DNA of 64,000 nucleotides, taken from contig CM075991.1 in assembly GCA_038087875.1 (NCBI GenBank), positions 8,124,001 through 8,188,000 of the forward strand, written 5' to 3'. The translations under genes were made by a program, and so were the position numbers. Under the pieces are notes generated by a model that had not been told where the DNA came from, searched no databases, and saw only the letters and a list, made by a program, of their open reading frames with translations. The stretch comes from Malacoraja senta. Lineage: Eukaryota. Positions 28,724 to 64,000 of the stretch are shown piece after piece (position 1 is the first letter of the stretch; every line of letters begins with the position of its first letter).

Positions 28724-28923
28724 NNNNNNNNNNNNNNNNNNNNNNNNNNNNNNNNNNNNNNNNNNNNNNNNNNNNNNNNNNNNNNNNNNNNNNNNNNNNN
28801 NNNNNNNNNNNNNNNNNNNNNNNNNNNNNNNNNNNNNNNNNNNNNNNNNNNNNNNNNNNNNNNNNNNNNNNNNNNNNNNNNNNNNNNNNNNNNNNNNNNN
28901 NNNNNNNNNNNNNNNNNNNNNNN
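28724..28923. other. Assembly gap (200 N)
   Basis: Run of N, flanked by a CR1 fragment and a (GAGTGT)n-like repeat. Confidence 0.99.
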
Positions 28924-31228: not shown

Positions 31229-31379
31229 TGGGCAAGTTGGGCCCAAGGGCCCGTTTCCACTCTGTAAAAACCACATGCATTTTGAGCACCACATCTTCAA
31301 GTCCCATCGCACCTCGAGCCTCACCCCAATAACGTGAGCCAAAGATAACATCAGCCAACATAGTCACATAAATCAAGCA

Positions 31380-31385
31380 TTTATT
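31380..31385 (-). promoter_or_regulatory. Candidate polyadenylation signal AATAAA of the CPEB gene
   Basis: tttatt on +, at the distal end of the AU-rich unique block and just before repeats resume. Confidence 0.45.
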
Positions 31386-32730: not shown

Positions 32731-33398
32731 AGGGGGGGAGAGAGGGGGAGAGAGGAGAGAGGGGGGAGAGGGGGAGAGAGAGGAGAGAGGGGAGAGAGGG
32801 GAGAGAGGAGAGGGGAGAGGGGAGAGAGAGGAGAGAGAGGAGAGAGGGGAGAGAGAGGAGAGAGGGGAGAGAGAGGAGAGAGGGGAGAGAGGGGAGAAAG
32901 GGGAGAGAGAGGAGAGAGGGGAGAGAGGGGAGAGAGAGGAGAGAGGGGAGTGAGGGGAGAGGGGCGAGAGGGGAGAAAGGGGAGAGAGGGGAGAGAGGGG
33001 AGAGAGAGGAGAGAGGGGAGAGAGGGGAGTGAGGGGAGAGGGGCGAGAGGGGAGAAAGGGGAGAGAGGGGAGAGAGGGGAGAGAGAGGAGAGAGGGGAGA
33101 GAGAGGAGAGAGGGGAGTGAGGGGAGAGGGGCGAGAGAGGAGAGGGGGAGAGAGGGGAGAGAGGGGAGAGAGGGGAGAGAGGGGAGAGAGGGGAGAGAGG
33201 GGAGAGGGGCGAGAGGGGAGAGAGAGGAGAGAGGGGAGAGAGAGGAGAGGGGGGAGGGGAGAGAGAGGAGAGAGGGGAGAGGGGCGAGAGGGGAGAGAGA
33301 GGAGAGAGGGGAGAGAGAGGAGAGGGGAGAGAGGGGAGAGAGAGGAGAGAGGGGAGAGAGGGGAGAGAGGGGAGAGAGGGGAGAGAGGGGAGAGAGAG
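32731..33398. repeat. GA-rich purine repeat (GGGGAGAGA)n
   Basis: Visible directly. Confidence 0.95.
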
Positions 33399-33758
33399 TG
33401 CATGAGTTTCCATGAACGTGCTTTGATCCTCGAATGCAGCCAGACTTTGAAGGCGTTCCTTCTCCTGACCTCTGCCTGGTGCTGTGGGTGTGAGGATGTG
33501 AAGGTGAGTGGGTGCAGGCACTGGGGGCTACCCCACTCCACACTGCCGTCTCCTGCATGGCCTTCTCCACCTCCGCAGTTCCCTCAGACAGCGTTTGGGA
33601 TGGTGACTTGCTGGACAGGCCCCGGCTCTGGTGGGGAAATGTAAAGCCCCTCCCCCCTGCCCCCCCCCTGCCCACGGATCCTATCCCCACGGCTGCAGAA
33701 TACATTCCAAGTCTGTCCTCGTGTTATCAACTGACCACTCTCATCCAACTAACACAAC

Positions 33759-33804
<46 letters not shown>

Positions 33805-34235
33805 AGAGAGGGGGTGAGCGAGTGAAGATAGGAATGAGGGTGGGGGGGAGGAGGGAGGGGGTGGGTGGGGTGAGGTATGGAGGGTGGGATGGTGGGAGTG
33901 AGGGTAGGGGGGGGAGGGGAGCGATGGGGGTAGTGTTCGGGGAGTGAGGGGGTGGGCTGCAGGGAGTGGACGGGCAGGAGCAGGGGTGTGCATGACGGGG
34001 GCTTCCACTGTACGTGGAGGGGGATGAAGGAGTGAGGGGGAGGAGGAGGAGGAGGAGGAGGATACGTGTACGTATGTGCTGGGTGCGATGGAGGGCAGGT
34101 GCGGTGATGGATGTGGGGGGGGGGGGTGAGTAGTGGAGGGGAGTGCGAGCCATGCTTTTGTGTGTGTGAACACGTGTGTGTGCATGTATGTGGGTGCGTG
34201 TGACTGCAGGTGTGCATGTCTGTGTGAATATAGAT

Positions 34236-34672
34236 AGAAATATGCGTGTGTATACACTTATATATACGTGTGTGTGTGTATATATGAGTACACGTGTGTA
34301 TGTGTACACGTCCGTTTTTGTGTGTATGCGTGTGTGTGTATACACTTATATATATGTGTGTGCGTGTGTGTATATGAGTACACGTGTGTATGTGTACATG
34401 TGCGTTTGTGTGTGTATGCGTGCGTGTGTATACTTATATATATGTGTGTGCGCGTGTGTATATGAGTACACGTGTGTATGTGTACATGTGCGTTTGTGTG
34501 TGTATGCGTGCGTGTGTATACACTTATATATATGTGTGTGCGTGTGTGTATATGAGTACACGTGTGTATGTGTACATGTGTGTGTGTGTATGCGTGCGTG
34601 TGTACGCGTGTGTGTACAGGTGCGTGTGTACATGTGTGTTGGTGTGTACACATATATATGTGTGTGTATACA
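34236..34672. repeat. GT/AT-rich minisatellite, ~60-bp unit
   Basis: Recurring TATATGAGTACACGTGTGTATGTGTACA block. Confidence 0.9.
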
Positions 34673-35309
34673 TGGGGGGAAGGCGGGGCTGTGTACGGGT
34701 GGGAGGGGCCATGTAGTAGTAGGCGGGGCAAGTCAGTGGGTGGGAGGGGCTTGTGTGTGTGTGGGAGGGGCTACAAGAAGCGCCGGGCAGAGTCACGGAA
34801 AAGTAGCGTGACATTGAACATGGAACACGCAAGTGCATTCGGACAACAAGTCTCAGGGTCTATTGGACTCCCTCTGCCTCCCTCACCTGCCACTGCAACC
34901 TGTTCAAACACCCCCTCCCCTCCCCCCCCCCCCCCCCCCACAACACCAGCCCCCCTCTCAGCCCCAACCCTGCCCTCCGAGTCTCCTCCCCCCCCACCCT
35001 ACCCTCGCTGTTTCGAGATCAAATCCCATCCTCCAAGGAAGAGAGTTTGCGGGAGGGGGGGGTTGCTCCGAGACGGAGAACTGAAGCACAGATCACACCC
35101 TCCAACCCATCACACTGGGTGTCCACCCCAAAAACCAGACTTTTCTGCTTAAAATTAAAACAAAAAAATTAATCAAAAGATATACTGGGTAAGAAAAATT
35201 TTGGTGCACAAACACTAAATAATGGGTTCGGCAAGTTAACAGAGAGCCGCCAAATCGCAGCGGGTGACTGCGCCCCTCGGAAGGGTGTTGGTGATGGCGG
35301 TGACGGATC

Positions 35310-35537
35310 CTAGCTCCACCGGAAGGGCAGCTGCCGGAGCCTCTCACCTCCCTCCTTCACCAGTGGCTTGTGGTACTCGCGCCCAGCTTGCGAATGGATG
35401 CTCGTCCAGCAGAACTCGCAGTAGTACTGCAGGCAGGTGATGTTGGCGCAAAAGAACGGGGCAAACTTGCCGTTGCAGTGGGCGCCCTGGCACTCGTCGC
35501 AGAGCTGGTCCACCAGAACGTAGGGCTTCACCTCCAC
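35310..35537 (-). CDS. CPEB2/3/4-subfamily terminal coding exon (ZZ zinc finger)
   Basis: ggcAG|GTG GAG ... TGG AGC TAG. VEVKPYVLVDQLCDECQGAHCNGKFAPFFCANITCLQYYCEFCWTSIHSQAGREYHKPLVKEGGERLRQLPFRWS*. The seven exons total 993 nt and splice in frame. Confidence 0.96.
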   Translation of the reverse strand: MEVKPYVLVDQLCDECQGAHCNGKFAPFFCANITCLQYYCEFCWTSIHSQAGREYHKPLVKEGGERLRQLPFRWS

Positions 35538-35632
35538 CTGCCGGGCAAGAGCAACCTACATGGGTTATGGTCACCTCCGTCCAATTATCGCCAGAGCAAC
35601 TCTCCCCCTTCCCAGCTCCCCCACCAGTCTTA

Positions 35633-35962
35633 AAGCCCTGTCCCACGGTGCGAGTTCATTCCAAGAGCTCTCCCGAGTTTGCCCTGATTCGAACTCGGAG
35701 ATTTACGGTAATGGCCACTCGTCGGTACTCGGGGCTCTCGAGGACATTTTTCATCATGTTGAAAAATCTTCACGAGTCTTCCCGTGCTTACCTGCCGTTA
35801 GCGAGTCTTCCCGAGTACCTGCCGTTAGCGTTACGAGCCGCTAAGTGACGTCCCCGAGCTCCGACGTACCCACTACGTTCATTCTCCGTGCTTACCACGA
35901 GTTTGATTTTTTTAAACTCGGGAGAGCTCTTGGAATGAACTCGTACCGTGGGACAGGGGCTA
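35633..35962. mobile_element. PIF/Harbinger-like MITE (same family as 12381)
   Basis: TTA TSD at 35630-35632 and 35963-35965; near-identical to the 12381-12700 copy. Confidence 0.85.
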
Positions 35963-36905
35963 TTACTGTCTCCATCTACATTCTATCTCTGTACCGCCCA
36001 CTCCCCGACATCAATCTGAAGATGGGTCTCGACCCAAAAGGTCACCCATTCCTTCTCTCCAGAGATGCTGCCTGTCCCGCTGAGTTACTCCAGCATTTTG
36101 TGTCTACCTTCAAGAGAGAGTTAGATTTAGCTCTTAGGGCTAACTAAATCAAGGGTTATGGGGAGAAAGCAGGTTCTCTGGATGCTTTCAAGAGAGAACT
36201 AGATAGGGCTCTTAAAAATAGCGGAGTCAGGGGATATGGGGAGAAGGCAGGAACGGGGTACTGATTGGGGATGATCAGCCATGATCCTATGGATACTTTC
36301 TCCCCGTGACCTCGTGGGTTTTCTCCGGGTGTTCCGGTTTCCTCCCACACTCCAAAGATGTTTGGAGGCTAATTGAGTTCGGTAAAAATTGTAAATTGTC
36401 CCGAGTGTGTGTTGGATAGTGCTAATGTACCGGGCGATCGCTGGTGGGCGCGGACTCGGTGGGCCAAAAGGGCCCGTTTCTGCGCTGTATTTCTAAAGTC
36501 TAAAGACTGGTAGAACATGAGAGAAATTGATGGGAATATGGAGAGATTAAAGATGAGATCAGGAGCTAAAAACAGTGCTGCAAGAAGGTGGTGCAGGCAG
36601 CATCTGTGTGGGGCAATGGACAGACAACATTTCAGAATGAAGATGGGTTCAAACCCAAAATATTTGTTGTCTATTTCCATTCCCTGATACTGCCTGACCT
36701 GCTGCGTTCCTCCAGCAGTTTGCATTGTGTTCTCAATCCCATCAACTGCAGTCTCGGTCTCCAAAATGGCATTAGTGCAGGATTAATGCAATGGTTGCCT
36801 GATGGTCAGTGCGGACTCAATGGGCCGAAGGGCCTCAGATGTACGACTCTAACTTTAATCCCTCCACTCATTATATATCCCTCCCACTGCCCCAAAACAC
36901 ATATG

Positions 36906-37497
36906 TGTTAAAATTGTACAAGGCATTGGTGAGGCCAATTCTGGAGTATGGTGTACAATTTTGGTCGCCTAATTATAGGAAGGATGTCAACAAAATAGAG
37001 AGAGTACAGAGGAGATTTACTAGAATGTTGCCTGGGTTTCAGCAACTAAGTTACAGAGAAAGGTTGAACAAGTTAGGGCTTTATTCTTTGGAGCACAGAA
37101 GGTTAAGGGGGGACTTGATAGAGGTCTTTAAAATGATGAGAGGGATAGACAGAGTTGACGTGGATAAGCTTTTCCCATTGAGAGTAGGGAAGATTCAAAC
37201 AAGGGGACATGACTTGAGAATTAAGGGACAGAAGTTTAGGGGTAACATGAGGGGGAACTTCTTTACTCAGAGAGTGGTGGCTGTGTGGAATGAGCTTCCA
37301 GTGAAGGTGGTGGAGGCAGGTTCGTTTTTATTATTTAAAAATAAATTGGATAGTTATATGGACGGGAAAGGAATGGAGGGTTATGGTCTGAGCGCAGGTA
37401 TATGGGACTAGGGGAGAATACGTGTTCGGCACGGACTAGAAGGGTTGAGATGGCCTGTTTCCGTGCTGTAATTGTTATATGGTTATATGGTTATATG
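36906..37497 (+). mobile_element. CR1 LINE 3' end, open ORF2 C-terminus
   Basis: LYKALVRPILEYGVQFWSPNYRKD...RGDLIEVFK...FFTQRVVAVWNELP; (TTATATGG)n tail. Confidence 0.9.
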
Positions 37498-39173
37498 TGC
37501 TTTGAAAGCTTTGTTTAGCTTTTACCTTAGTTTAGAGATACAGCGTGGAAACAGGCCATTCGGCCCACCGAGTCCGCGCCGACCAGCGATCACCCCGTGC
37601 ACTATCCTGCACACACTAGGGACGGTCACGGTGGCGCAGCGGTAGAGTGGCTGCTTTACAGCGAATGCAGCGCCGGAGACCCGGGTTCGATCCCGACCAC
37701 GGGTGCTGTCTGTACGGAGTTTGCACGTTCTCCCCGTGACCTGCGTGGGTTTTCTCCGAGATCTTCGGTTTCCTCCCACACACCAAAGACGCACAGGTTT
37801 GTTGGGTAATTGGCTTGGAGAATGTTTAAAAAATATATTATAATTAAAAAAATTGTCCCTAGTGGGTGCAGGATGGTGTTAATGGTCGGCGCGGACCCGA
37901 TGGGCCGAAGGGCCTGTTTCTGTGTTGTATCTGTAAACTAAACTACAGAAGCCAATTAAACTACAAATTTGCCCGTCTTTGGAATGTGTGGAGGGGACCG
38001 GAGCACCTGGAGAAAGCCCACGTGGTCACGGGGAGAAAGTACAAACTCCGTACAGACAGCACCCGTAGTCAGGATCGAACCCGGGTCTCTGGCGCTGTGA
38101 GGCAGCAACCGCTGCGGCATCCACCGTGCCGCCCCTTTTGTAGTTGCTCGCTTGCGTGCAGACCAGCTGCTGTGCCGCCCTGAATGAAGAGGGTGCACTT
38201 GAATGTGAGGGGCACCAGACTAATACAAGACCTTACACTTGCTACAGAATTGATGATGGAGACGCTCCACCTACAGGTAACCACAAGGTGGCAGTGTCTA
38301 CCAGAGGGACGCGGGACGAAAACAAAGTTATCTTTACAGGTTGAAAACTTTTCCACAGATGAGGGAGAGATGTTCTCTTTGCACGGATACTTCAGTTTAG
38401 TTTTGCCCAGTTTTGCTTAGTTTGGTGATACACACGCCTTCAGCCCACCGGCGGATCCACGCCAACCAGCGATCACCCGTACCTAAATGCTAATCCTGCC
38501 ATTGCCAAAACACAGATGATGTGCATATTACGATCACCCACCATCTTCTGACTGTTTCCAGCACTTTGTGTTTGTGTTCCCGGTCTCCAGCACACTAGTT
38601 TCTGTGTTCATCCCACTTTTGCATCCGCTCCCTACACACAAGGGGACAATTCGCCTACAAAACCCGCAGGTATTTGGCCACGGACAGGACGTGCAAACTC
38701 CACAAAGACAGCACCCGAGGTCAGGTTTGAACCTGGGTCTCTGGCGCTGTGAGGCAGCGGCTTAGCAGGCGCGCAATGTGGATTGAGGGAAAGCACCAGC
38801 TCTTTTCACTGACGTAGGTTTAGTTTAGAGATACAGCGCGGTGAACAGGCCATTCGGCCCACCGAGTCCGTGACGCCCCGCGATCCTCGCACATTGACAC
38901 GATCCTACACACACTAGGGACAATACACACTTATACCCAAGCCAATTGACCTACGAACCCGCACGTCTTTGGAGTGTGGGAGGAAACCGAAGATCTCGGA
39001 GAAAACGGGGAGAACGTGCAAACTCCGTACAGACAGCACCCGTAGTCGGGCCTGGGACTCTGGTGCTGCAAGAGGTGTAAGGCAGCAACTCTACCGCTTT
39101 TCGCCCCTTGGGTGGGCTAAGGATGCAGGGAGGGCTGGCCAGAGGAGGGGGGGGGGGAAGGGGGAGGTCTTAC

Positions 39174-39355
39174 CCGCTTGTCGATGTCCCGGTGCTGTAG
39201 TTGGATGAAGCGGGCACTGATGGCGGCGATGTAACTCTGCTGGTTGGCGAAGGCTACTCTGCCCGCACCCTTGGGGTACTTCAGCTCGGGGTCGGTGTCG
39301 ATGCCAGCGTAGCAGACGCCTCCGTACAGCTGGTCCATGATCATGGCCAGCTCGA
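39174..39355 (-). CDS. CPEB2/3/4-subfamily exon (RRM2)
   Basis: tgcAG|TC GAG CTG ... AAG CGG|GTaag, 182 nt. (V)ELAMIMDQLYGGVCYAGIDTDPELKYPKGAGRVAFANQQSYIAAISARFIQLQHRDIDKR. Confidence 0.96.
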
Positions 39356-40854
39356 CTGCAAGAGGCAGGGACCGCCGTTAGTCTACGCGCCCACCGCGAT
39401 ACACGACCATCACGCACGCCCCACCCCAAACCCAGCGCCAGCCAGGTGGGTTGGGACACCAGCGATGGGCCGAATAACCCGCAGCAGCCCGACGTGCATA
39501 CTTTGTAACCTTGTCAGAGCCCTTTATGTGGAGACTGTTTGCATACCTTGGGTGTGCAAGCAAAGAATTTCACTATGACTTGTCACTAGACTTACAACCC
39601 ATTTCTACTGACAAGCGTTTCTTGAGGTCCTCTGAGGGAGCGCTGTATGTATGTATGTATGTATGTATGTATTGTTTGATCTATGTACCATTGTATACCA
39701 AGGACTTTGGACTGTGTACCAAGGACTTTGAGTCCTTGAAAAGCGCTATATAATTAACATGTATTATTATTATTATTGTATGCAGCATGTTAGTACCTGC
39801 ACTGATGGAAAGCACTTTGGTCAACGAGAGTTGTTTTTAAATGTGCTGTCGAAATAAAATTGACTTGACTTGACTTGTGACACTGAAGTATTCAGTCATT
39901 CACTCATTCTGGTGACTAGTAATAGGTCGACACAAAGTGCTGGAGTAACTCAGCGGGTCGGGCAGCATCTCTGGAGAAAAAGAATAGTTGACCTTTCCGG
40001 TCGAGACCCTTCTTCAGGATGAAGTCGCAGTTTGAAGAAGGAGCATTCTGACTGAGCCACTGTCCGAAGAAGGGTCTCGACCTGAAACGTCAACTATTCC
40101 TTTTCTCCAGAGATGCTGCCCGACCCGCTGAGTTACTCCGGGACTTTGGTATAAACCAGCATCTACAGTTCATTGTTTCTACCTGCGACGTATTTGTGTT
40201 GCCTCATGATTTTATTTATTTATTATATTATTTATTACAGGAGACATTTGGACAGGTACATAGATACCTGAAGATGGGTCTCGACCAGAAACGTCACCCA
40301 TTCCTGCTCTCCAGAAATGCTGCCTGTCCCCGCTGAGTTACTCCAGCTTTTTGTGTCTATCTTCGGTACAGAGATAGGATAGGATTGGAGGGATGTGGGC
40401 CAAATGCGGGCAGGTGGGACTAGTGTAGATTGGGCATGTTGGTTAGCATGGGCAAGTTGGGCCGAAGGGCCTGATTCCCATAATGTATGACTCAATGAAT
40501 CTACTAGTTATAGAGTCACACATCATGGAAACAGGTGCTGCACCCCAACGTTTAAGAGACGTCAGTTACCAGAGGCAAGGCACAGATGGATACAGTCGTA
40601 ATGCAGGGAGACGGGATGAGTGTAGATGAGGAAAAAGGTCGGCATGGACATGGTGTTTCTTTCTGTGCTGTACGCCCCTGATTCTATGCCATTGCTCAGC
40701 AGATCCCACTTGCCCATTTAGTTCCCTGGTACATGCACCCTCTCAACTCTTGGAGACCCCCAGAAACTGCAGATGCAAGAGTAACTCAGCAGGTCAGGGA
40801 GCATCTCTGGAGAACATGGATACATGACGTTTCGTGTTGGGACCCTTCTTCAGG

Positions 40855-41420
40855 GTGTGTGTGCGCGCGCGTGTGTGAGTCTGCGTGTGTGCGTGCGTGT
40901 GCCTGAGTGTGTCTGTGTCTGTGTGTGTGCGTCTGCGTCTGTGTGTGTGCGTGCATGTGCCTGAGTGTGTCTGTGTCTGTGTGTGTGCGTCTGCGTCTGT
41001 GTGTGTGCGTGCGTGTGCCTGAGTGTGTCTGTGTCTGTGCGTGCGTCTGCATGTGTGTGTGCGTGCGTGTGCCTGAGTGTGTGTGTCTGTGTGAGTGCGC
41101 GCGTGTGTGCGTCTGCATGTGTGTGTGCGTGCGTGTGCCTGAGTGTGTCTGTGTCTGTGCGTGTGTGTGCGTGCGTGTGCGTGTGCCTGTGTGTGTGCGC
41201 GCGTGTGTGCGTCTGCGTGTGTGCGTGCGTGCGTGTGCCTGAGTGTGTCTGTGTCTGTGTGCGCGCGCGCGTGTGTGCGTCTGCGTGTCTGCGTGTGTGC
41301 GTGTGCCTGAGTGTGTCTGTGTCTGTGTCTGTGCGCGCGTGTGTGCGTCTGCGTGTGTGTCTGCATGTGTGCGTGCGTGTGCCTGAGTGTGTCTGTGTGT
41401 GTGTCTGTGCGTGTGCGTGC
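40855..41420. repeat. (GT/GC)-rich compound repeat with recurring GCCTGAGTGTGTCTGTGT
   Basis: Visible directly. Confidence 0.9.
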
Positions 41421-41474
41421 CTGTTTCCGCGCTGCATCTCTAAACTAAAGTGGACAAAGCCTCGGGCAACCTAC

Positions 41475-41589
41475 CAGCTTTCAGCGGCCGAGGGACCCCA
41501 CCAACAAAGACGGTCTTCCTGGGATCCAGAGGCTGGGATCCATCGAGCACAAAGTCACTGTCGCTCAGGCTCCACGGCCTAATCTGGAC
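41475..41589 (-). CDS. CPEB2/3/4-subfamily exon (RRM1-RRM2 linker, start of RRM2)
   Basis: ttcAG|GTC CAG ... AAA GCT G|GTagg, 115 nt. VQIRPWSLSDSDFVLDGSQPLDPRKTVFVGGVPRPLKA. Confidence 0.96.
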
Positions 41590-41711
41590 CTGAAACACAG
41601 AAGCAAACACAACCAGTAAAGCACCAGACATTCACGTGGACACAATGAACAGCAGATGCTGGTTTACACACCAAAAACAGACACCAAGTGCAGGAGTGAC
41701 TCAGCGGCTCA

Positions 41712-42030
41712 GGCAGTACGGTGGTGCAGCGGTAGAGTTGCTGCCTTACAGCAGCAGAGACCCAGGTTCGATCCCGACCACAGGCGCTGTCTGAACAAGA
41801 GTTCGTAGGGTCACCCCGTGACCTGCGCGGGTTTTCTCCGATATCTTCGGTTTCCTCCCGCACTCCAAAGACGTGCAGGCGCAGGTTTGTAGGTTAATTG
41901 GCTCGGTATAACTGTAAATTATCCCTAGTGTGTGTGGGATAGTGTTAATGTGCGGGGATTGCTGGTCGGCGCGGACTAGGTGGGCCGAAGGGCCTGTTTC
42001 CCCGCTGTATCTCCAAACCAAACTCTAAAA
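41712..42030 (+). mobile_element. HE1-type V-SINE
   Basis: Full-length copy. Confidence 0.8.
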
Positions 42031-42459
42031 CTCTAAGCATCTTTGGAGAACTCTACACTTGTAACAAGGACATGAAAACGGCATCAAATCTATCCACTCC
42101 GTAAACCTACTGCTGTACGCACTGTTTCTGGGATGTTTATCTAAGATGTATCTGAATGCTTATTTATAGTAAGTAGATACATAAAGCTGGAGTAACTCAG
42201 CGTGGACAGGCAGCAGCATCTCTGGGGAGAGGGAATGGGTGACATTTGGGGTCGAGACCCTTCCTCAGACTGAGAGTCAGGGGAGAGGGAAATTAGAGAT
42301 ATGGAAATGTACAGAACAGATCAGAGTCCGCACCGATGACCACTGAAAGGTGGAGCCCACAATGGTCCATTGTTGGCTGTGGAAGAGGTGATACCAAAGG
42401 GATATATGGATGTGAACAGGGAAACTAGCAGGATGACTGGGATGGGGGTTGAGGGGGGG

Positions 42460-42499
<40 letters not shown>

Positions 42500-43984
42500 C
42501 AAATGTCACTTCAAATTAGAGAAATCAATATTCATTCCGCCGGGTTGTGTGGGATCACTGGTCAGTGTGGACTCAGTGGGCTGAAGGGCCTGTTTCCGCG
42601 CTGTATCTCCAAACTAATCTAAACATTTAGACAGACAGCTACTGTAGGGAAGGCATAAAAGGATACGGTCCTAATGCAGGCAGTTGGGATGAGTGTAGAT
42701 GAGGAAAGAAATGAAGGGCCGAAGGGCCCGTTTCTGTGTTGTACCCCTCTGATTTTATACCATCTTAGAGCTATCCCAATAATACCATTTCCCCATTTAG
42801 TTCCCTGGTACAAATACTCTCACAACTCTCAGGGGTAAAAGGAACTGCGAATGCTGGTTTACAGAATAAGACACAGAGTGCTGGAGTAACTCTGCGGGTC
42901 CAGCAGCATCATGGTTTAGGGATACAGCATGGAAGCGGGCCATTCGGCCCAGCAAGTCCACGATCGCCCGCACACTGGTTCAATGTTATCCCAGTGTCAC
43001 ATCCTACACACCAAGAGCAAGGTACACGAGCCAATTAACCTACAAGCCTGCACGTCTTTGGAGTGTGGGAGGAAACCGGAGCACCTGGAGAAAACCCACG
43101 CAGGTCACGGGGAGAACGTACAAACTCCATACAGACAGCACCCGTAGTCAGGATCGAACCTGTGTCTACGGAGCTGTGAGGCAGCAACTCTACCGCTGCG
43201 CCACCGTGCCGCTGTCTGGAGAGCATTGATAGGTGACGTTTCAGGTTGGGACCCTTCTTCTCCAGAAGAGTCCCGACCCAAAACGTCACCCATCCATGTC
43301 CTCCCACAGATGCTGCCTGACCCACTGAGTTACTCCAGCAATTTATGTCTATTTGTCTCTCTCTCTCTCTCGTCTTCCCCCATTGTCCTGTCATCCACCT
43401 GCACCAGACCAACAGGACAAAAACAGGTGGCCAGGGGCTATGGGGAGAGAGAAGGCAGGAGAATGGGGTTGAGAGGGAGATAGATCAGCCACAAATGAAA
43501 GGCGGAGTAGACTTGACGGGCCGAATGGCCTAATCCTGCTCCTATAACCTATGTATTTATGAAAACCAATGTGGTCACTGGGAGAACATGCAAACTCTAA
43601 TCCTGAATTGGAGCCCGACCTGAAACGCCACCCATCCTTGTCCTCCAGAGATGCTGGCTGACCCGTTGAGTTACTCCAGCACTTTGTGTCTACCTTTGCT
43701 TTGCTAGCCTTCCTGATGCATCCTGCCTTCTTGGAAGATTTTGAGTTTGTATATCTTCTGTTGTTTCACCCTTTCTAAAAACAGAAGGGTTTAATTAAAC
43801 TCGGGCCACTCCACACGTTTCATTCTGTAATGGATTAACTCTGGTATTTTTGTTATCTCACTCCAACACTGCACGTCTTTAAAACTGCCAACAGCAAGCT
43901 AGCTGTCCAACTGGGTCAGAGTTTAGCCAGTGCATAATATTGACCCTCAGATCAGTTCCTGTGATTGGAAAGCGTTGCCTCGAT

Positions 43985-44355
43985 GACAATTGACAATAGG
44001 TGCAGGAGTAGGCCATTCGGCCCTTCGAGCCAGCACTGCCATTCAATGTGATCATGGCTGATCATCCCCAATCAGTACCCCGTTCCTGCCTTCTCCCCAT
44101 ATCCCCTGACTCCGCTATTTTTAAGAGCCCTATCTAGCTCTCTCTTGAAAGCATCCAGAGAACCGGCCTCCACCGCCCTCTGAGGCAGAGAATTCCACAG
44201 ACTCACCACTCACTCTCTGTGAGAAAAAGTGTTTCCTCGTCTCCGTTCTAAATGGCTTACTCCTTATTCTTAAACTGTGGCCCCTGGTTCTGGACTCCCC
44301 CAACATCGGGAACATGTTTCCTGCCTCTAGTGTGTCCAAGCCCTTAACAATCTTA
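43985..44355 (-). mobile_element. CR1 LINE 3' end
   Basis: Same subfamily as 46597-47480. Confidence 0.85.
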
Positions 44356-44789
44356 ACAAACTTTGAATGTTCTATGAGCGGAGGGAATCCTCTGCCTCTG
44401 TACCCAAATGCACTCACTTGTCCTACAGGGTGGCACGGTGGCACAGCGGCAGAGTTGCTGCCTCACACGCCAGAGACCCGGGTTCAATCCTGACTCCGGG
44501 TGCTTGCCTGCGCGGAGTTTGTGCGTTCTCCCCGTGACCTGCGTGGGTTTTCTCCGAGAACTCCCACACTCCAAAGATGTGCAGGCTTGTAGGTTCATTG
44601 GCTTCGGTAAAATTGTAACTTGTCCCCCCGTGTGTGTACGATAGCGCTAGTGAGCGCAGATTCGATCCTGACTATGGGTGCTGTCTGGGACTGCATGGGT
44701 TTTCTCCGGGAGCTCCGGTTTCCTCCCGCACTCCAAAGACGTGCGGACTCGGTTAGCCGAGAGGGCCCAGTTCCCACGCTGTATCTCTA

Positions 44790-45543
44790 AATGGTGGCCG
44801 ACTAGGAAAAGGGGAGATGCAGCGAGACCTGGGTGTCATGGTACACCAGTCATTGAAAGTAGGCATGCAGGTGCAGCAGGCAGTGAAGAAAGCGAATGGT
44901 ATGTTAGCTTTCATAGCAAAAGGATTTGAGTATAGGAGCAGGGAGGTTCTACTGCAGTTGTACAGGGTCTTGGTGAGATCACACCTGGAGTATTGCGTAC
45001 AGTTTTGGTCTCCAAATCTGAGGAAGGACATTATTGCCATAGAGGGAGTGCAGAGAAGGTTCACCAGACTGATTCCTGGGATGTCAGGACTGTCTTATGA
45101 AGAAAGACTGGATAGACTTGGTTTATACTCTCTAGAATTTAGGAGATTGAGAGGGGATCTTATAGAAACTTACAAAATTCTTAAGGGGTTGGACAGGCTA
45201 GATGCAGGAAGATTGCTCCCGATGTTGGGGAAGTCCAGGACAAGGGGTCACAGCTTAAGGATAAGGGGGAAATCCTTTAAAACCGAGATGAGAAGAACTT
45301 TTTTCACACAGAGAGTGGTGAATCTCTGGAACTCTCTGCCACAGAGGGTAGTCGAGGCCAGTTCATTGGCTATGTTTAAGAGGGAGTTAGATGTGGCCCT
45401 TGTGGCTAAAGGGATCAGAGGGTATGGAGAGAAGGCAGGTACGGGATACTGAGTTGGATGATCAGCCATGATCATATTGAATGGCGGTGCAGGCTCGAAG
45501 GGCCGAATGGCCTACTCCTGCACCTAATTTCTATGTTTCTATG
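44790..45543 (+). mobile_element. CR1 LINE 3' portion, open ORF2 C-terminus
   Basis: ORF 44817-45452 (QRDLGVMV...KKANGML...GYGEKAGTGY); (TATGTTTC)n tail. Confidence 0.92.
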
Positions 45544-46596
45544 TGAAACTAAACTCATCTGCAATGAACCACAGACAAGGGGATTTTTTTTGTTTGGCGT
45601 GCTGGAATGCTGAACAGTCAGAATTTACTTCCTGATCAAGTGACACAGATGCAGTTTCTCGGGCTGCCTTTCAAAAGAGGGTGAGATAAAAACAATGTGA
45701 GGATAGGGGACAAGAGGATGTGTGTGAAAGAAGGAAATGCAGATGCTGGTTTAAACCGAAGATAGACACAAAATGCTGGAGTAACTCAGCGGGGCAGGCA
45801 GCATCTCTGGAGAGAAGGAATGGGTGACGTTTTGGGTCGAAACCCTTCTTCACCCCAAGAGGATGGGTGCAGGTCTATTAGTTTTGCTTACTATCCAGGC
45901 CTAACGTACCAGGCTTGAGCACAGAGGCAGTGCAAGGGACAAGATAATCAGTGTGCGAAAGATGAAGTGGGCAGAGTATAGAATGTAGTATGACAGGCTC
46001 AGAGAAAAATGTGCAAGTGCCATCACATAGCGCAGCACAGCGGTAGAGTTGCTGCCTTACAGCGCCAGAGACCTGGGTTCGATCCTGACGAAGGGTACTG
46101 TCTGGGACTGCGTGGGTTTTCTCCGGGCGCTCCGGTTTCCACCCACACTCCACAGACGTGCAGGTTTGCAGGTTCATAGGCTTCAGTAAAACTGTAAACT
46201 GTCCCCCAGTGTGTGTAGGATAGTGCGAGTGTACGGGGTGATCACTGGTTGGCACAGACTCGGTGGGCCGAAGGGCCTGTTTCCATGCTGTATGTCTAAA
46301 GTAAAGGTACAGGTCCCTGCTGTACAACCTGTTTACCGGCTCGGAGTTGCTGCCTTACAGGGCTTGCAGCGCCAGAGACCCGGGTTCGATCCCGACCACG
46401 GGTGCTGTCTGTACGGAGTTTGTACGTTCCCCCCGTGACCACATGGGTTTTCTCCGAGATCTTAAGTAGCATGTGGCAGCAACTCTACCGCTGCGCCACC
46501 GTGCCGCCCTTTCCTCCAGAGATGCTGCCTGACCCGTTGAGTTACTCCAGCATTTTGTGTCTACCTTTCACTATGCTGTATGTTTCAATTAGGTCA

Positions 46597-47480
46597 ATAG
46601 ACAATAGACAACAGGTGCAGGAGTAGGCCATTCGGCCCTTCGAGCCAGCACCGCCACTCAATGTGATCATGGCTGATCATCCCCAATCAGTACCCCGTTC
46701 CTGCCTTCTCCCCATATCCCCTGACTCCGCTATCTTTAAGAGCCCGGTCTAGCTCTCTCTTGAAAGTATCCAGAGAACCTGCCTCCACCGCCCTCTGAGG
46801 CAGAGAATTCCACAGACTCACCACTCTCTGTGAGAAAAAGTGTTTCCTCGTCTCTGTTCTAAATGGCTTACCCCTTATTCTTAAACTGTGGCCCCTGGTT
46901 CTGGAATCCCCTAACATCGGGAACATGTTTCCTGCCTCTAGCGTGTCCAAGCCCTTATCAATCTTATATGTTTCAATGAAATCTCCTCTCATCCTTCTAA
47001 ACTCCAGAGTATACAAGCCCAGCTGCTCCATTCTCTCAGCATATGACAGTCCCGCCATCCCGGGAATTAACCTTGTAAACCTACGCTGCACTCCCTCAAT
47101 AGCAAGAATGTCCTTCCTCAAATTAGGGGACCAAAACTGCACACAATACTCCAGGTGTGGTCTCACTAGGGCTCTGTACAACTGCAGAAGGACCTCTTTG
47201 CTCCTATATTCGATTCCTCTTGTTATGAAGGCCAACATGCCATTGGCTTTCTTCACTGCCTGCTGTACCTGCATGCTTACTTTCATAGACTGATGTACAA
47301 GGACCCCCAGATCCCGTTGTACTTCCCCTTTTCCCAACTTGACGCCATTTAGATAGTAATTTGCCTTCCTGTTTTTGCTACCAAAGTGGATAACCTCACA
47401 TTTATCCGCATTAAACTTCATCTGCCATGCATCTGCCCACTCCCCCAACCTGTCCAAGTCACCCTGCATTCTCATAGCAT
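46597..47480 (-). mobile_element. CR1 LINE 3' portion, open ORF2 C-terminus
   Basis: QGDLDRLGEWADAWQMKFNADKCEVIHFG...GYGEKAGTGY; starts ~35 bp inside the CPEB intron. Confidence 0.92.
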
Positions 47481-47516
47481 CCATCCTCATCATGACCAGT
47501 GAGGGGCCGCACTCAC

Positions 47517-47635
47517 CGGTTTGTCCTTGACCGTACGGCTGGAAACGTAAAGGTACAGCTTGCCGTCGTCGTGGTAGCAGGCGTCGATGAGAACCTGGAC
47601 AGAACATTCCTCCTGAAACAGCAGGAAGGCGTAAC
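47517..47635 (-). CDS. CPEB2/3/4-subfamily exon (RRM1 RNP1)
   Basis: tgcAG|GT TAC GCC ... AAA CCG|GTgag, 119 nt. (G)YAFLLFQEECSVQVLIDACYHDDGKLYLYVSSRTVKDKP. Confidence 0.95.
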
Positions 47636-48589
47636 CTGCAAAAAGCAAGGCACCCTGGTCAGTGTGGAGCTCTGCCGTTCAATTCAAACAACGAAACAGG
47701 ATTAAGTTCAAAGCAATTGAGTTTAGATACGTACAGACACGAAATGCTGGGGTAACTCGGCGGGACAGGCAGCATCTCTGGAGAGAAGGAGATTGTGTCT
47801 ATCTTTGAGTAGAGCTCTTAAATGGGCAGAGTCAAGGGATATGGGGAGAAGGCAGGAACGGGGTACCGATTGTGGATGATCAGCTGTAATGGCGGTGCTG
47901 GCTCGAAGGGCCGAATGGCCTACTCCTGCACCTATTGTCAATCATCTCTTGTCTAAACCAGCGTCTGCAGTTCCTTCCTACACATGTAATTAGTTTAGTT
48001 TGGCTTAGAGATCCAGCGCGGAAACAGGCCCTTCGGCCCACCGGGTCCTCGCCGGCCAGCGATCCCCGCACATCAACGCTGCCCTACACGTACTCGAGAC
48101 ATGTTATTAACCTTTGTACCCAAGCCAATTGACCTACAAACCTGTACGCCCTTGGAGTGTGGGAGGAAAGCGAAGATCTGGGAGAAAACCCACGCAGGTC
48201 ACGGGGAGAACGTACAAACGCAGCACAGACAGCGCCCGTGATCAGGATCAAACCCGGGTCTCTGGCGCTGTAAGGCAGTAGATCGACGGCAAGGCCACTG
48301 TGCCGAAATTGCTGAAATTTCAACCTCATATAATGTAGAAACATAAGAACTGATAATCATAAACCATCATTAAAATCCTCACTACCTCACCAGGATGTCC
48401 AGCAAGCCCACTAGTCTGCACGAAGGGTCTCAGCCAGAAACATCACCTATCCTTGTTCTCCAGCGATGCTGCCCGACCCGCTGAGTTACTCCAGCATGTC
48501 GTGTCTTCCCTTGGTGAAGCACTATCCCGCAAGCTCTTTGTACGCAGCTTCCTCCTGGTGCTAACAATGGATGGATGTGGAGGTCTTAC

Positions 48590-48679
48590 CTTTGGGTGGG
48601 AAGTAGGATTTGCTCCCGGACTTGTGGGGCCAGTCGACCATCAGCTGGCCAAAGCAGCAGAAGGTAGCGATGATCTCAT
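48590..48679 (-). CDS. CPEB2/3/4-subfamily exon (RRM1)
   Basis: accAG|AT GAG ATC ... CCC AAA G|GTaag, 90 nt. (D)EIIATFCCFGQLMVDWPHKSGSKSYFPPK. Confidence 0.95.
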
Positions 48680-48710
48680 CTGGTCAGAAACAAGGAGGAA
48701 ATAAGGTCAA

Positions 48711-49350
48711 CTTGGTACATCTCCACTTAGATCAACCTGGTACATGTCCAGAGATCAACCTGGTACATGTCCAGAGATCTACTTGGTACATGTCCAGAGA
48801 TCTACTTGGTGCATCTCCACTGAGATCAACTTGGTACATGTCCAGAGATCTACTTGGTACATGTCCAGAGATCTACTTGGTACATGTCCAGAGATCTACT
48901 TGGTACATGTCCAGAGATCTACTTGGTACATGTCCAGAGATCTACTTGGTGCATGTCCAGAGATCTACTTGGTACATGTCCAGAGATCTACTTGGTACAT
49001 GTCCAGAGATCTACTTGGTACATGTCCAGAGATCTACTTGGTACATGTCCAGAGATCTACTTGGTACATGTCCAGAGATCTACTTGGTACATGTCCAGAG
49101 ATCTACTTGGTACATGTCCAGAGATCTACTTGGTACATGTCCAGAGATCTACTTGGTACATGTCCAGAGATCTACTTGGTACATGTCCAGAGATCTACTT
49201 GGTACATGTCCAGAGATCTACTTGGTACATGTCCAGAGATCTACTTGGTACATCTCCACTGAGATCAACGTGGTACATGTCCACTGAGATCAACCTGGTA
49301 CATCTCCACTGAGATCAACTTGGTACATCTCCACTGAGATCAACGTGGTG
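48711..49350. repeat. 23-bp minisatellite (TTGGTACATGTCCAGAGATCTAC)n, ~27 units
   Basis: Near-perfect core array with CTCCACTGAGATCAAC-variant units at both edges. Confidence 0.97.
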
Positions 49351-49359
49351 TATCTCCAA

Positions 49360-50245
49360 CCTCAGCTCTACCACCGAGACCATGCCCAGGGAATTCTCAA
49401 CGCCATTGTGGTGGCTGTTTGCATTCCTCCCTCCCGCCAACCCACTGCGAGCGTGTCACCGTCATCCACACAGTCACCGCAAGACTCCACACACAACGCC
49501 CGACTGCTTTCATCGCTATCTCGGAGTATTTCAACCACGTGACTTTGGACGCTACCCTACCCATTTTCACTCAGTTTGTTGCCTGTCCCACAGGGATATG
49601 AAAACATTGGACCTGCTCAGCTGTACGCCGATGCTAAAGAGGCTTACAGCTCCAAAGCCCTTCCGCCACCGGGTAGATCCGACCACAACCCGACCACGAC
49701 CAATTCCCAGAGGCCATTAGGACTGTAAACTCCTATTTCTCCAGGGACTAACGTTACTGAACCATGTTACTGTTGTGGGGTGTCTTTTTAAAGTTGCTGT
49801 TTTTTCCTTTTTCTTCCCTCCCACAAATATGTCATATGTGAATAAGTCATTCTGTTCCATTCTGTTTGTCGTTTGGTTGTTTGTTTTTTGCACAATTCGC
49901 GAGCATTGCCATTTTTCATTTCACTGCACATCTCGTATGTGTATGTGAGGAATAAACTTGACTTGACTTGAACCTGGTTCACCTCCTACCCAGGTAGAAG
50001 CCAATGGCCCAGAGGCTGCCTTTGACCCACAATGCCTGTGATACTCTACTGGGCCGTTTTGAGATGACAGACTGGGACGCACTATGTAGTCCCCATGGAG
50101 GGGACATTGATGGACTCACGGACTGTGTTACCAGTTACATAAATGTGGATTCTGTGTGGATAACATTGTCTCTGAGGAGACTGTACACTGTTTCTCCAAC
50201 AACAAGCCCTGCGTCATCAGTGACATAAAGGCCCCTCTCAACCAG
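49360..50245 (+). mobile_element. Degenerate Rex1/Babar endonuclease-region fragment, interrupted by a LINE 3' tail
   Basis: Frameshifted PREFS, VVAVCIPP, FNHVTL, KTLDLL, GRSDHN and FEMTDWDAL...DIDGLTDCVTSYI motifs. Confidence 0.55.
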
Positions 50246-50558
50246 AATATCTGGGGTACTGATTTTAGATGATCAGCCATGATCATATTGAATGGTGGTG
50301 CTGGCTCGAAGGGCTGAATGGCCTCCACCTGCAACTATTTTGCTACATTTCTACCTCTTGCTGAAAGCTGTATACTCATTGTCCATTTTGTCTTTTGACG
50401 AGCATGTTCCCCACACCAACTACACACAAGCATCCATACAATGGACCCCCCCCCCCCCCACTCCCCATAATACTGAACACATTGACTCTCTATCCTCCAG
50501 AGAGCCCCAGATATAAAGGGGGTCGTTTGCATTGGGGGATCAGGACGATGTATCTCAC

Positions 50559-50726
50559 CTTCATCGATGTCGGGGGGGAGACCGCCGACAAAAACCTTTC
50601 GGGAATATCGCTCCCCGTGCTTCCCGTTCTGACTCAGAGCCGGGGAGTTCAAGCCCGAAGATAAGGACTGGTCACCCTGGCCGTTGTCGAGGAAGCCATC
50701 TTCTACGGGGAAGAGAGCCGACCGAC
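50559..50726 (-). CDS. CPEB2/3/4-subfamily exon (linker and start of RRM1)
   Basis: cgcAG|GT CGG TCG ... GAT GAA G|GTgag, 168 nt. RSALFPVEDGFLDNGQGDQSLSSGLNSPALSQNGKHGERYSRKVFVGGLPPDIDE. Confidence 0.95.
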
Positions 50727-51456
50727 CTGCGGATGAGAAGGAGCGTGGTTGTTTGTACATTCCTTACTCCACGTTAAATCCAGTAAAGAACTAGACCAAG
50801 GGGGACCCGTTGGGTCCCGTCCCCACAACGCAGGGTTGCGGGGGGCCTATGGCTTCACACACACACTAACCCCCCCCCCACACACACACTAACCCCCCCC
50901 CCCCACACACACACAGGGGGGGGAGGGGAGTAGAGGGGGGGAGGGCAGTAGAGGGGGCGGGGTGAGAGGGGTGGGGGAGGGGATGTGAGATGGGTTGGGG
51001 GAGGGGGAGAGAGAGGAGAGGGGGGAAGGGGGAGAGAGGGATAGGGGAAGGGAGGGGGGTGGAGGAGGGTAAAGAATGGTGGGGCCAGCGCTCGACTAAG
51101 CAGGAGAGGTGGGCGGTCATGTCACAACAGAATATAGTAGGCATAATTAAATACAGAACAGGACACATGATCTGTTCTGTATTTATGTCTACTATATTCT
51201 GTTGTGCTGAAGCAAAGCGTGAATGTCATTGTCCTATCTGGGACACATGATAATAAACTTGCTTGAATCTTGTATAATCCCTGCCATATACAAGCAGTTG
51301 ACTTCCCCGCATGCCAACATTCAACTTCTCATTGTTAGACACAAAATGCTGGAGTAACTCAGCGGGACAGGCAGCGTCTCTGGAGAGAAGGAATGGGTGA
51401 CGTTTCGGGTCTCGGTTCACCGAGTCCTCGATGACCAGCTATACCCCGCACATTAA

Positions 51457-51635
51457 AGGGTCTGTCCCACTTGGGCGTCATAATTTACGCGTCACGACGC
51501 ACGACGCGCGCATGGTGCGTGGTGACGTAGGCAGTGACGCACGGTCGCGCGCGGCGCCCCAGGATTTTGGTGTGTAGAAAATCTTCGCGCGCCATCTGCG
51601 TGACGCGCAAATGACGCCCAAGTGGGACAGACCCT
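51457..51635. mobile_element. CpG-rich PIF/Harbinger-like MITE (third family) inserted in a V-SINE
   Basis: taa|AGGGTCTGTCCCACTTGGGCGTCA ... TGACGCCCAAGTGGGACAGACCCT|taa; interrupts the SINE motif cacattaacactatcc. Confidence 0.85.
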
Positions 51636-51712
51636 TAACACTATCCTACACACACTAGGGATAATTTTACATTTGCACCAAGCCAATTAACCTATATACC
51701 TGTACGTCAAAT

Positions 51713-52555
51713 GTTTGGCAGATGCAGTATAATGTGGATAAATGTGAGGTTATCCACTTTGGTGGCAAAAACAGGAAAGCAGACTATTGGTGGCCGATTA
51801 GGAAATGGGGAGATGCAGCGAGACCTGGGTGTCATGGTACACCAGTCATTGAAAGTAGGCATGCAGGTGCAGCAGGGCAGTGAAGAAGGCGAATGGTATG
51901 TTGGCCTTCATAGCAAAAGGATTTGAGTATAGGAGCAGGGAGGTTCTACTGCAGTTGTACAGGGTCTTGGTGAGACCACACCTGGAGTATTGCGTACAGT
52001 TTTGGTCTCCAAATCTGAGGAAGGACATTATAGCCATAGAGGGAGTACAGAGAAGGTTCACCATACTGATTCCTGGGATGTCAGGACTTTCATATGAAGA
52101 AAGACTGGATAGACTTGGCTTATACTCGCTAGAATTTAGGAGATTGAGAGGGGAGATTGTACGTTTCTTATAGAAACGTACAAAATTCTTATGGGGTTGG
52201 ACAGGCTAGATGCAGGAAGATTGTTCCCGATGTTGGGGAAGTCCAGGACAAGGGGTCACAGCTTAAGGATAAGGGGGAAATCCTTTAAGACCGAGATGAG
52301 GAAAAACGTTTTCACACAGAGTGTGGTGAATCTCTGGAACTCTCTGCCACAGAGGGTAGTTGAGGCCAGTTCATTGGCTATATTTAAGAGGGAGTTAGAT
52401 GTGGCCCTTGTGGCTAAAGGGATCAGGGGGTATGGAGAGAAGGCAGGTACAGGATACTGAGTTGGATGATCAGCCATGATCATATTGAATGGCGGTGCAG
52501 GCTCGAAGGGCCGAATGGCCTACTCCTGCACCTATTTTCTATGTATCTATGTATC
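51713..52555 (+). mobile_element. CR1 LINE 3' portion
   Basis: Near-identical to 44790-45543, with small indels. Confidence 0.9.
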
Positions 52556-53004
52556 TACGTCTTTGGAGTGTGGGAGGAACCGAAGATCTCGGCAGGACAC
52601 GGAGGAGAACGTACAAACTCTGCACAGACAGGATCCAACCCAGGTCTCCGGCGCTGCAAGCGCTGTAAGGCAGCAGCTCTACCACTGCGCCAACGTGCCA
52701 CCATGGGTGATCGCTGGTCTGCGCGGACTGGGTCGGCCGGCGGCCCGTTTCCGCGCTGTGTTTCAACAGTCGAAAGCGCTAACAAAAGACAACCGCAAAG
52801 TGCTTCGGGGCGTCGCGCGGGAAAAGGGGGCCGCAGTACTGCAAGCTGCTCGTTCATTTCCGTCACAACTAAATAGACGCAGTAACGTCGGAGAGAAGCG
52901 GGAGATCCACTCATCCAGCGAAGCCCAGGGGTCAGCGGCTGTGAACGGACGGGTGGGAGGGAGCCCGGAGCAAAGAGGGCCGTGCGGTTTCAACCCCCAC
53001 TCAC

Positions 53005-53095
53005 TTTTCAGCGGTTCCTGCTCGTTCTGCAAGATGTCGATGAGCGAGTTCTCCAGCGAGTGCATGTTGAACGTGTCGTAGGGCTGGGTCCATTC
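53005..53095 (-). CDS. CPEB2/3/4-subfamily protein, exon with the MHSLENSLIDI motif
   Basis: ttcAG|GAA TGG ... CTG AAA A|GTgagt, 91 nt. EWTQPYDTFNMHSLENSLIDILQNEQEPLK resembles CPEB2/3 DRSRxYDxxNxHSLENSLxDxxRxxHxPLK. Confidence 0.9.
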
Positions 53096-63939: not shown

Positions 63940-64000
63940 TAACTCCGTGAATTTGGAGACTCAGATTTCTGACTTTAGTGCGCAGAACCAGGCCCTTCAG

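Follow-up and report, generated by a model that had tools for sequence, protein, structure and literature searches.

A likely fifth CPEB gene of elasmobranchs, intact and spliced, was found in the skate Malacoraja senta within a 64,000-nucleotide stretch of contig CM075991.1 (assembly GCA_038087875.1, positions 8,124,001 to 8,188,000 of the forward strand), hereafter the window. The gene is likely the fourth copy left by the two genome doublings (2R) that also produced CPEB2, CPEB3, and CPEB4. For the protein, we predict binding to the cytoplasmic polyadenylation element (CPE) and action as a less switchable repressor. Its seven in-frame coding exons, first proposed in a preliminary description of this DNA, occupy the minus strand between 35310 and 53095. 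All seven acceptors are AG and all six donors GT, and the joined exons total 993 nt, an uninterrupted frame of 330 codons that closes with a stop. In the direction of transcription, the features are as follows (RRM, RNA recognition motif).

53005..53095, minus: 91-nt exon encoding the conserved helix motif of the N-terminal part; further coding sequence precedes it
50559..50726, minus: 168-nt exon, linker and start of RRM1; the linker is of the short type common with CPEB3
48590..48679, minus: 90-nt exon, RRM1; fixed private changes including two Arg-to-Cys and Ala-Glu to Ser-Gly
47517..47635, minus: 119-nt exon, RRM1; E131D, P142R, and I144V (numbering of Afroz 2014)
41475..41589, minus: 115-nt exon, end of RRM1, linker, and start of RRM2
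39174..39355, minus: 182-nt exon, RRM2; contigs from three runs join it to the last exon
35538..35555, minus: alternative in-frame acceptor extending the last exon by 18 nt (six residues)
35310..35537, minus: last coding exon, 228 nt including the stop; end of RRM2 and the ZZ zinc domain

Pfam identifies the CPEB ZZ domain (PF16366) in the last exon, and RRM_7 (PF16367), RRM_1 (PF00076), and ZZ in a full-length skate ortholog. The best match in the PDB is CPEB4 (2MKI, E 1e-115), with CPEB1 at E 3e-54. Because the N-terminal part of the orthologs, about 236 residues, has no match anywhere in the 64-kb window, the first coding exon lies beyond position 64000 and the gene is incomplete here. The six introns led us to reject a retrocopy. 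In an AlphaFold model, only RRM1 was predicted with confidence (mean predicted local distance difference test score of 48), and an Rfam scan of the window returned nothing, including no CPEB3 ribozyme.

Evidence for splicing comes from sequencing contigs. In three of four runs, representing three studies and three organisms, contigs join exon 39355-39174 straight to the last exon; the fourth run yielded a last-exon contig only. Skipping of the 3.6-kb last intron at the predicted sites indicates splicing, and since the RNA label of these runs is a guess, it is the spliced contigs themselves that constitute the evidence. In one of the runs, seven of the eight coding differences listed are silent. 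The alternative acceptor is used in two of the three spliced contigs and also in Leucoraja erinacea isoforms X1 and X2. Its six extra residues fall in the last RRM2 strand, just ahead of the Tyr253/Val254 pocket that reads the fifth CPE base; the insertion could alter or weaken RNA recognition. The intron just upstream of the acceptor of the 90-nt exon contains a tandem array of a 23-nt unit (48710-49349, 27 copies, 95% identity), and the RefSeq model of the Amblyraja radiata ortholog lacks four internal exons, which together encode RRM1 except for its last strand; this is probably an assembly or annotation gap.

Orthologs were identified in skates, rays, and sharks. A search with the last exon gave five proteins at 95-99% identity, all from these groups, and other vertebrate matches at no more than 81% (best 120 of 1647 matches). 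A query of 300 N-terminal residues from the bamboo-shark ortholog retrieved the same five at E <=4e-88, the next match being CPEB3 at 3e-35 (best 120 of 142). Ortholog clusters extend the set to 18 named species, eight batoids and ten sharks, under the NCBI labels "CPEB2-like" or "CPEB3-like." Three Logan proteins and the model from Leucoraja erinacea each match the window protein at 329 of 330 residues. In shared-word searches, taking the top matches listed, no ortholog was found in chimaera or in any bony vertebrate. The earlier proposal of a loss in mammals holds in that none was found there, but the absence extends to the other bony vertebrates searched and to chimaera; it is an absence of matches in word-based searches, and loss is not proven.

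Placement within the CPEB2-4 family

The trees were built from alignments of different composition. A quick tree with outgroups had 38 rows (the initial 50 less 14, plus two trimmed CPEB4 rows); later trees and sets for the approximately unbiased (AU) test had 25 rows, 21 rows (JTT), and 16 rows (LG+C20). In the 38-row tree, sequences of the new gene group together as a separate clade, with a support of 100 in the Shimodaira-Hasegawa-like approximate likelihood ratio test and a stem of 0.64. The CPEB3 (92), CPEB2 (98), and CPEB4 (99) clades each exclude it, and its attachment at the base is not resolved. When outgroups are omitted, (new, CPEB3),(CPEB2, CPEB4) comes out as the best tree, with ultrafast bootstrap (UFBoot) values of 87 under JTT and 89 under LG+C20. 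Within these ingroup trees, the new gene again forms its own clade (100), CPEB3 excludes it at UFBoot 97-99, and CPEB2 joins CPEB4 at 87-89. The best ingroup topology agrees with the duplication order (Hsa8,Hsa10),(Hsa4,Hsa5) of human chromosomes that the consulted parts of PMC2453138 and PMC12019251 give for this paralogon, to which UNC5 belongs.

Nesting of the new gene within a known paralog was rejected by the AU test. The p values under three models were 0.004, 0.009, and 0.015 for grouping with elasmobranch CPEB3, and 0.041, 0.020, and 0.029 for grouping with chondrichthyan CPEB3; grouping with chondrichthyan CPEB4 (p <1e-6) and a position inside bony CPEB2 (6e-5) were likewise rejected. 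The new gene thus appears to stand outside the CPEB2, CPEB3, and CPEB4 clades, and a sister relation to CPEB3 is preferred, although not proven.

The gene is also not the sole copy of any of these paralogs. CPEB2, CPEB3, and CPEB4 are present on other chromosomes in a skate and in the zebra shark: the supplement of PMC12019251, as far as accessible, places cpeb2, cpeb4, and cpeb3 on chromosomes 1, 11, and 15 of Amblyraja and on chromosomes 1, 13, and 20 of Stegostoma. The cpeb2 gene adjoins bod1l1 and nkx3-2 on chromosome 1 of both species (PMC12019251), at 82 and 79 Mb; the contigs bearing the new gene are 18.4 and 20.6 Mb long, so cpeb2 cannot lie on them. At the fourth locus (stc1, nkx3.1, slc25a37, and entpd4; Amblyraja chromosome 39, Stegostoma chromosome 40), no cpeb is listed in the accessible tables of PMC12019251. 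For Leucoraja, Table S1 of PMC11965684 gives three other accessions for CPEB2, CPEB3, and CPEB4, and the little skate genome tables consulted place Cpeb2 on Leri_1C and Cpeb4 on Leri_11C (PMC10115646). Across species, the contig of the new gene differs in length from that of CPEB3 in nine of nine and from that of CPEB4 in 12 of 12.

Diagnostic characters agree with an old split. The new gene shares none of 12 CPEB2-specific residues, four of 12 CPEB4-specific residues, and two of six CPEB3-specific residues, and at three of these six, which are common to shark and bony CPEB3, it keeps the CPEB2/CPEB4 state. The linker before RRM1 has three residues in all 18 orthologs and in 17 of 17 CPEB3 sequences, compared with five in ten of ten CPEB4 and six in six of seven CPEB2; the short form occurs in none of the six scorable CPEB2 sequences. 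This indel favors an affinity with CPEB3. A short N terminus as a further trait common with CPEB3 was rejected, as lungfish and catfish CPEB3 have a long start. The preliminary description had read the protein as a mosaic of paralogs. The four motifs it quoted sit where it had placed them, but the mosaic itself does not stand: residue counts point to retained ancestral states, which explain the appearance, together with one convergence, CEFCW, which is confined to skates (other sharks and rays have CDYCW) and hence is not a CPEB2 trait.

The suggestion made from the window alone, that this is the fourth ohnolog, is supported by the position outside the three paralogs, by their separate loci, and by a best tree that matches the history of the paralogon. 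We hold with good confidence that the new gene is the fourth 2R ohnolog of the CPEB2/3/4 ancestor.

Several points weigh against this interpretation. The CPEB2 rows, and hence the trees, lack a shark CPEB2 sequence: a search aimed at it gave only amniote CPEB2 among the best 120 of 636 matches, and none of 19 named representatives (of 150) is a shark CPEB2. The AU test retains the new gene as sister to CPEB2 or to CPEB4 (p 0.09-0.51 across three analyses; 0.225 and 0.205, respectively, in the 21-row set, 0.114 and 0.111 in another set). Outgroups shift its position, which is unresolved at the base with 38 rows and beside CPEB3+CPEB4 with 25 rows, and in the 25-row set with outgroups a place outside CPEB2-4 altogether is also retained (p 0.33). 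The long stem, about 0.6 changes per column, weakens the rejection of a chondrichthyan CPEB3 duplicate at p 0.02-0.04. Paired diagnostic columns support CPEB4 (four) over CPEB3 (two). The copy is known from a single lineage, the elasmobranchs. Finally, the link to the presumed UNC5D described below crosses an assembly gap, and errors in the assembly are apparent around it.

The UNC5 neighborhood and alternative origins

The tail-to-tail arrangement with an UNC5-family gene that had been reported for this window was recovered. Five plus-strand exons encode UPA and death domains and end in a stop codon (25574-25576) some 9.7 kb away from that of the CPEB gene, and the 200-N gap noted within this linkage lies at 28724-28923.

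6062..6289, plus: UNC5 exon, start of the UPA domain
8148..8297, plus: UNC5 exon, UPA domain
15652..15816, plus: UNC5 exon, UPA domain
23958..24134, plus: UNC5 penultimate exon, start of the death domain; the frame changes twice as assembled
25384..25576, plus: last UNC5 coding exon, death domain and stop
28724..28923: 200-N assembly gap separating CPEB from UNC5, with a LINE-like piece on one side and a 6-nt satellite on the other

We take the neighbor to be UNC5D from its paralog features; the computed matches establish membership of the UNC5 family only. Its best PDB match is UNC5B, which is the sole UNC5 member in the PDB for these domains, and for two of the exons the ESM Atlas matches were either weak death-domain ones or unrelated. 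The penultimate exon measures 177 nt where the flanking phases require 3n+2, and its UNC5-like reading runs through three frames with two apparent one-base shortfalls. These shortfalls are probably assembly errors, or possibly a broken UNC5D death domain in this skate, and the twofold frame change marks the region as one with probable assembly errors.

Chromosomal context beyond the window can be drawn from several sources. Orthologs of the new CPEB lie on small chromosomes of 15-28 Mb in eight species. TIA1 is a gene of human 2p. The human chromosomes Hsa2 and Hsa8 together stand for the fourth member of the paralogon in the portion of PMC2453138 available. The last-column accessions in the accessible Table S1 of PMC11965684, a column that its methods suggest to be TIA1, are 108-338 numbers from that of the new gene in four of five species and 1936 in the fifth, a weak hint that the two share a chromosome. 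In the supplement of PMC10115646, so far as it was available, little skate identifiers LE07189-LE07191 beside Unc5d carry the labels Npy1r-2 and Zmiz1-2. These are second copies from families of the same paralogon, and further retained fourth ohnologs may lie in this region. In human, CPEB and UNC5 paralogs lie on the same chromosomes without being immediate neighbors (CPEB coordinates from PMC12019251). We infer an origin of the new gene at the second doubling, as the sister of CPEB3 on the UNC5D/NKX3-1 chromosome, with loss in bony vertebrates.

Alternatively, the gene could be a later duplicate of CPEB3, formed on the chondrichthyan or elasmobranch stem, moved beside UNC5, and placed outside CPEB3 in trees by its fast evolution. 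Such a history would account for the restriction to elasmobranchs, the short linker common with CPEB3, and the long stem branch. In Carcharodon, the accession of the new gene is only 159 numbers from that of the apparent CPEB3, which could also reflect a chromosome fusion or consecutive chromosomes. Nevertheless, we regard this origin as unlikely, given that trees with the gene nested in CPEB3 are rejected under three models (p 0.004-0.04), that the gene has the CPEB2/CPEB4 state at three of the six residues common to shark and bony CPEB3, and that it sits on another contig than CPEB3 in all nine species. A chance landing beside an UNC5 gene of the same paralogon would also be improbable.

A second alternative accepts the gene but attributes its neighborhood to a mis-join at the 200-N gap, in which case the synteny argument falls and the origin is open. 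The position of the gap between the two genes, the LINE-like piece and satellite at its sides, and the apparent indel errors in the nearby UNC5 exon are compatible with an error of this kind. Against it stand the small 15-28 Mb chromosomes of the orthologs in eight species and, as a weak hint, the closeness of the presumed TIA1 accessions in four of five species; moreover, the tree result is independent of the gap. We consider a mis-join very improbable. That the gene is simply the elasmobranch CPEB2, as most of its NCBI labels ("CPEB2-like"), the CEFCW motif in skate, and the AU-retained sister position to bony CPEB2 might suggest, is scarcely credible: a separate cpeb2 on chromosome 1 in Amblyraja and Stegostoma and on Leri_1C in Leucoraja refutes it unless these are mis-annotated, none of the 12 CPEB2-specific residues is present, and CEFCW is restricted to skates.

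RNA-binding region, N terminus, and predicted function

Over the 258-residue RNA-binding region, CPEB2-4 are identical to one another at 248-255 positions and to mayfly Orb2 at 237-239, whereas the new gene matches CPEB2-4 at 219-223. The many private changes in the RRMs that had been read from the window are confirmed across species: 30 of the 258 positions are fixed differently in the window protein and 18 orthologs relative to 28 paralog rows. Of the 234 columns without variation in CPEB2-4, 26 are changed in the window protein. Relative-rate comparisons gave 28-30 changes in the new gene versus 0-3 in the paralogs with a hagfish outgroup (p <1e-5), and 25-28 versus 4-7 with a mayfly outgroup. 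Between Heptranchias and batoids, the region differs at six to eight positions in the new gene, at none in CPEB3, and at one or two in CPEB4; these small differences indicate that most change occurred early and that later constraint was strong, yet looser than in the paralogs. Several of the changes revert to residues of invertebrate Orb2.

The RNA-contacting surface is largely spared. Of the 22 contact or positioning residues that can be taken from the available text of Afroz 2014 (PMC4083092), 20 are identical in the window protein and all 18 orthologs, including R152, which the same source treats as a mark of CPEB2-4. The two that changed, E131D and I144V, cluster with the nearby P142R at the pocket for the first two bases. 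In the ZZ domain, seven Cys and two His are kept at the positions found in CPEB2-4, and the ZZ helix, described as the main repressive element of Orb2 in the accessible part of 10.1101/2025.07.10.664187, carries three fixed changes. In RRM1, exon 48590-48679 encodes a pair of neighboring Arg-to-Cys changes that all 18 orthologs share, and the window protein gains a third Cys elsewhere in this domain; such residues might form a redox or metal site.

The region before RRM1 is present in the orthologs (300-318 residues), with few proline-directed Ser-Pro or Thr-Pro (SP/TP) sites. There are 2-6 such sites in the 18 orthologs, compared with 9-13 in ten CPEB3, 14-18 in nine CPEB4, and 11-32 in six CPEB2 sequences; per 100 residues, the ranges of 0.6-2.0 in the orthologs and 2.1-4.3 in the paralogs do not overlap. 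No match to the B region or microexon was found in intron 50727-53004, where CPEB2-4 carry them, although a diverged microexon could be missed there, and both are absent from 18 of 18 ortholog models. These features matter in the known family, as far as the consulted sections of the following papers go. All four known CPEBs can repress through CCR4-NOT in condensates, and activation of CPEB2-4 involves phosphorylation of many proline-directed sites by ERK and CDK1, which dissolves the condensates, with the number of phosphosites counting more than their position (PMC9465852). A 24-nt neuron-specific microexon is common to CPEB2-4 and keeps CPEB4 condensates reversible in neurons (PMC11711090).

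Based on homology, a simple model can be proposed. The two RRMs would clamp the U-rich CPE in 3' untranslated regions (UTRs) as in CPEB4, and the ZZ domain and low-complexity N terminus would recruit repressors such as CCR4-NOT in condensates. With only 2-6 SP/TP sites and no microexon, the new paralog would be mostly repressive and hard to activate, and it would compete as a repressor with CPEB2-4 for shared mRNAs. CPE binding is very likely on this basis; the step to a poorly switchable repressor, suggested by the one-third complement of SP/TP sites and the missing microexon, is a good deal more tentative. The function of the new CPEB is here predicted from homology, and its faster crown rate would be as compatible with relaxed constraint as with a new role.

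In the main rival view on function, the gene would be a redundant, relaxed ohnolog that acts like CPEB3 in a narrower range of tissues, its changes being tolerated drift. Retention of the RNA contacts, a crown rate above that of the paralogs, the changes back to Orb2 residues, and an apparent loss without harm in bony vertebrates would all suit such a copy. Drift sits less easily with 30 changes fixed over 18 orthologs (at CPEB2-4-invariant columns, the window protein carries 26 of them), or with an SP/TP count that is low in 18 of 18 orthologs and without overlap with the paralogs per 100 residues. We rate redundancy as a real possibility, short of probable. About as tentative is a fuller reading of the gene as a "CPEB5": the missing 2R sister of CPEB3, rewired on the elasmobranch stem, which would read the CPE, would have shed most of its ERK/CDK1 sites and the neuronal microexon and changed its RRM1 and ZZ surfaces, and would repress regardless of signaling, thereby setting a floor under CPE-driven translation, before being lost in bony vertebrates. 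If true, it would represent a natural uncoupling of RNA binding from activation.

More generally, the RNA-binding region of CPEB2-4 is almost invariant from insects to humans, and the new copy amounts to a natural experiment in which 30 fixed changes that spare the RNA contacts point to surfaces important for partners. The loss of phospho-sites and of the autism-linked microexon provides a ready variant for testing condensate dissolution and the switch from repressor to activator.

Known relatives and the predicted 3' UTR

Vertebrate CPEB3 is the closest relative in several respects, including the tandem RRM and ZZ domains, 220-223 of 258 identical residues, the short linker before RRM1, the C-terminal end, and the sister position in the best tree. 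It differs in lying on another chromosome; the new gene lacks four of the six CPEB3-specific residues, has about one-third of the SP/TP sites, and yielded no B region, microexon, or CPEB3 ribozyme in the searches above. With CPEB4 and CPEB2, the new gene has in common the domain order, 219-220 of 258 residues, and the 20 of 22 RNA-contact or positioning residues known from CPEB4, R152 among them, but it is further from CPEB2-4 than mayfly Orb2 is, and it has none of the CPEB2-specific residues. Drosophila Orb2 and the single invertebrate genes of the CPEB2 subfamily represent the pre-duplication type and have a repressive ZZ helix that is largely kept in the new gene; in contrast to them, it has vertebrate-type N-terminal blocks and linker, and the best trees place it inside the vertebrate expansion.

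Ohnologs retained in sharks and lost elsewhere are already familiar, and the evolutionary finding would not by itself be surprising. The nkx2.5l gene of the same paralogon is described, in the part of PMC12019251 consulted, as a 2R copy kept in cartilaginous fishes and missing in bony vertebrates, and ohnologs.com holds 135 shark-only ohnologs according to the accessible portion of PMC13450315. These show the same retention pattern in other families, to which the new CPEB adds a strongly asymmetric rate in an otherwise near-invariant domain. Vertebrates are treated as having CPEB1-4 in the consulted text of PMC9465852, PMC11965684, and PMC10284499, and the second of these sampled 11 chondrichthyans and reports four paralogs only. 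Searches by name, shark, ohnolog, synteny, and gene loss, with weak coverage of subscription titles, found no paper naming or describing the new CPEB, and the readable supplement of PMC13450315 contains no CPEB, although this 2026 ohnolog database may hold the gene unnamed. The gene models are already in RefSeq under generic names. As the probable fourth ohnolog, the gene would complete the quartet of CPEB2-4 copies that two genome doublings should have left, and it would supply a corrected name for the "CPEB2-like" and "CPEB3-like" genes.

Downstream of the stop codon, a long 3' UTR is predicted.

31360..35309, minus: predicted CPEB 3' UTR of about 3.9 kb; its end is inferred, and contigs cover the first ~250 nt only

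Its distal AU-rich block (about 31360-31850) contains a miR-26 7mer at 31814, a let-7 7mer at 31622, and two copies of AATAAA (31568 and 31385). At 32152, 338 nt upstream of the miR-26 7mer, is a miR-92 7mer. In a shuffle test of the block, three miRNA families were reached in four of 2000 shuffles, a post hoc figure because the block was picked after the sites had been seen. A miR-26/miR-92 doublet near a poly(A) signal is reported in the accessible part of PMC2995058, where these miRNA families target CPEB2-4 at paralogous positions. By eye, 31795-31814 holds a near-match one base off the miR-92 seed, just downstream of the miR-26 7mer, and it is perhaps the decayed second half of the CPEB2-4 doublet. 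Between 31900 and 34800, the region contains a 9-nt array (32735-33396), a 90-nt array (34243-34604), and G/C runs. Such long simple repeats and G/C runs are unlike the conserved UTRs described for CPEB2-4.

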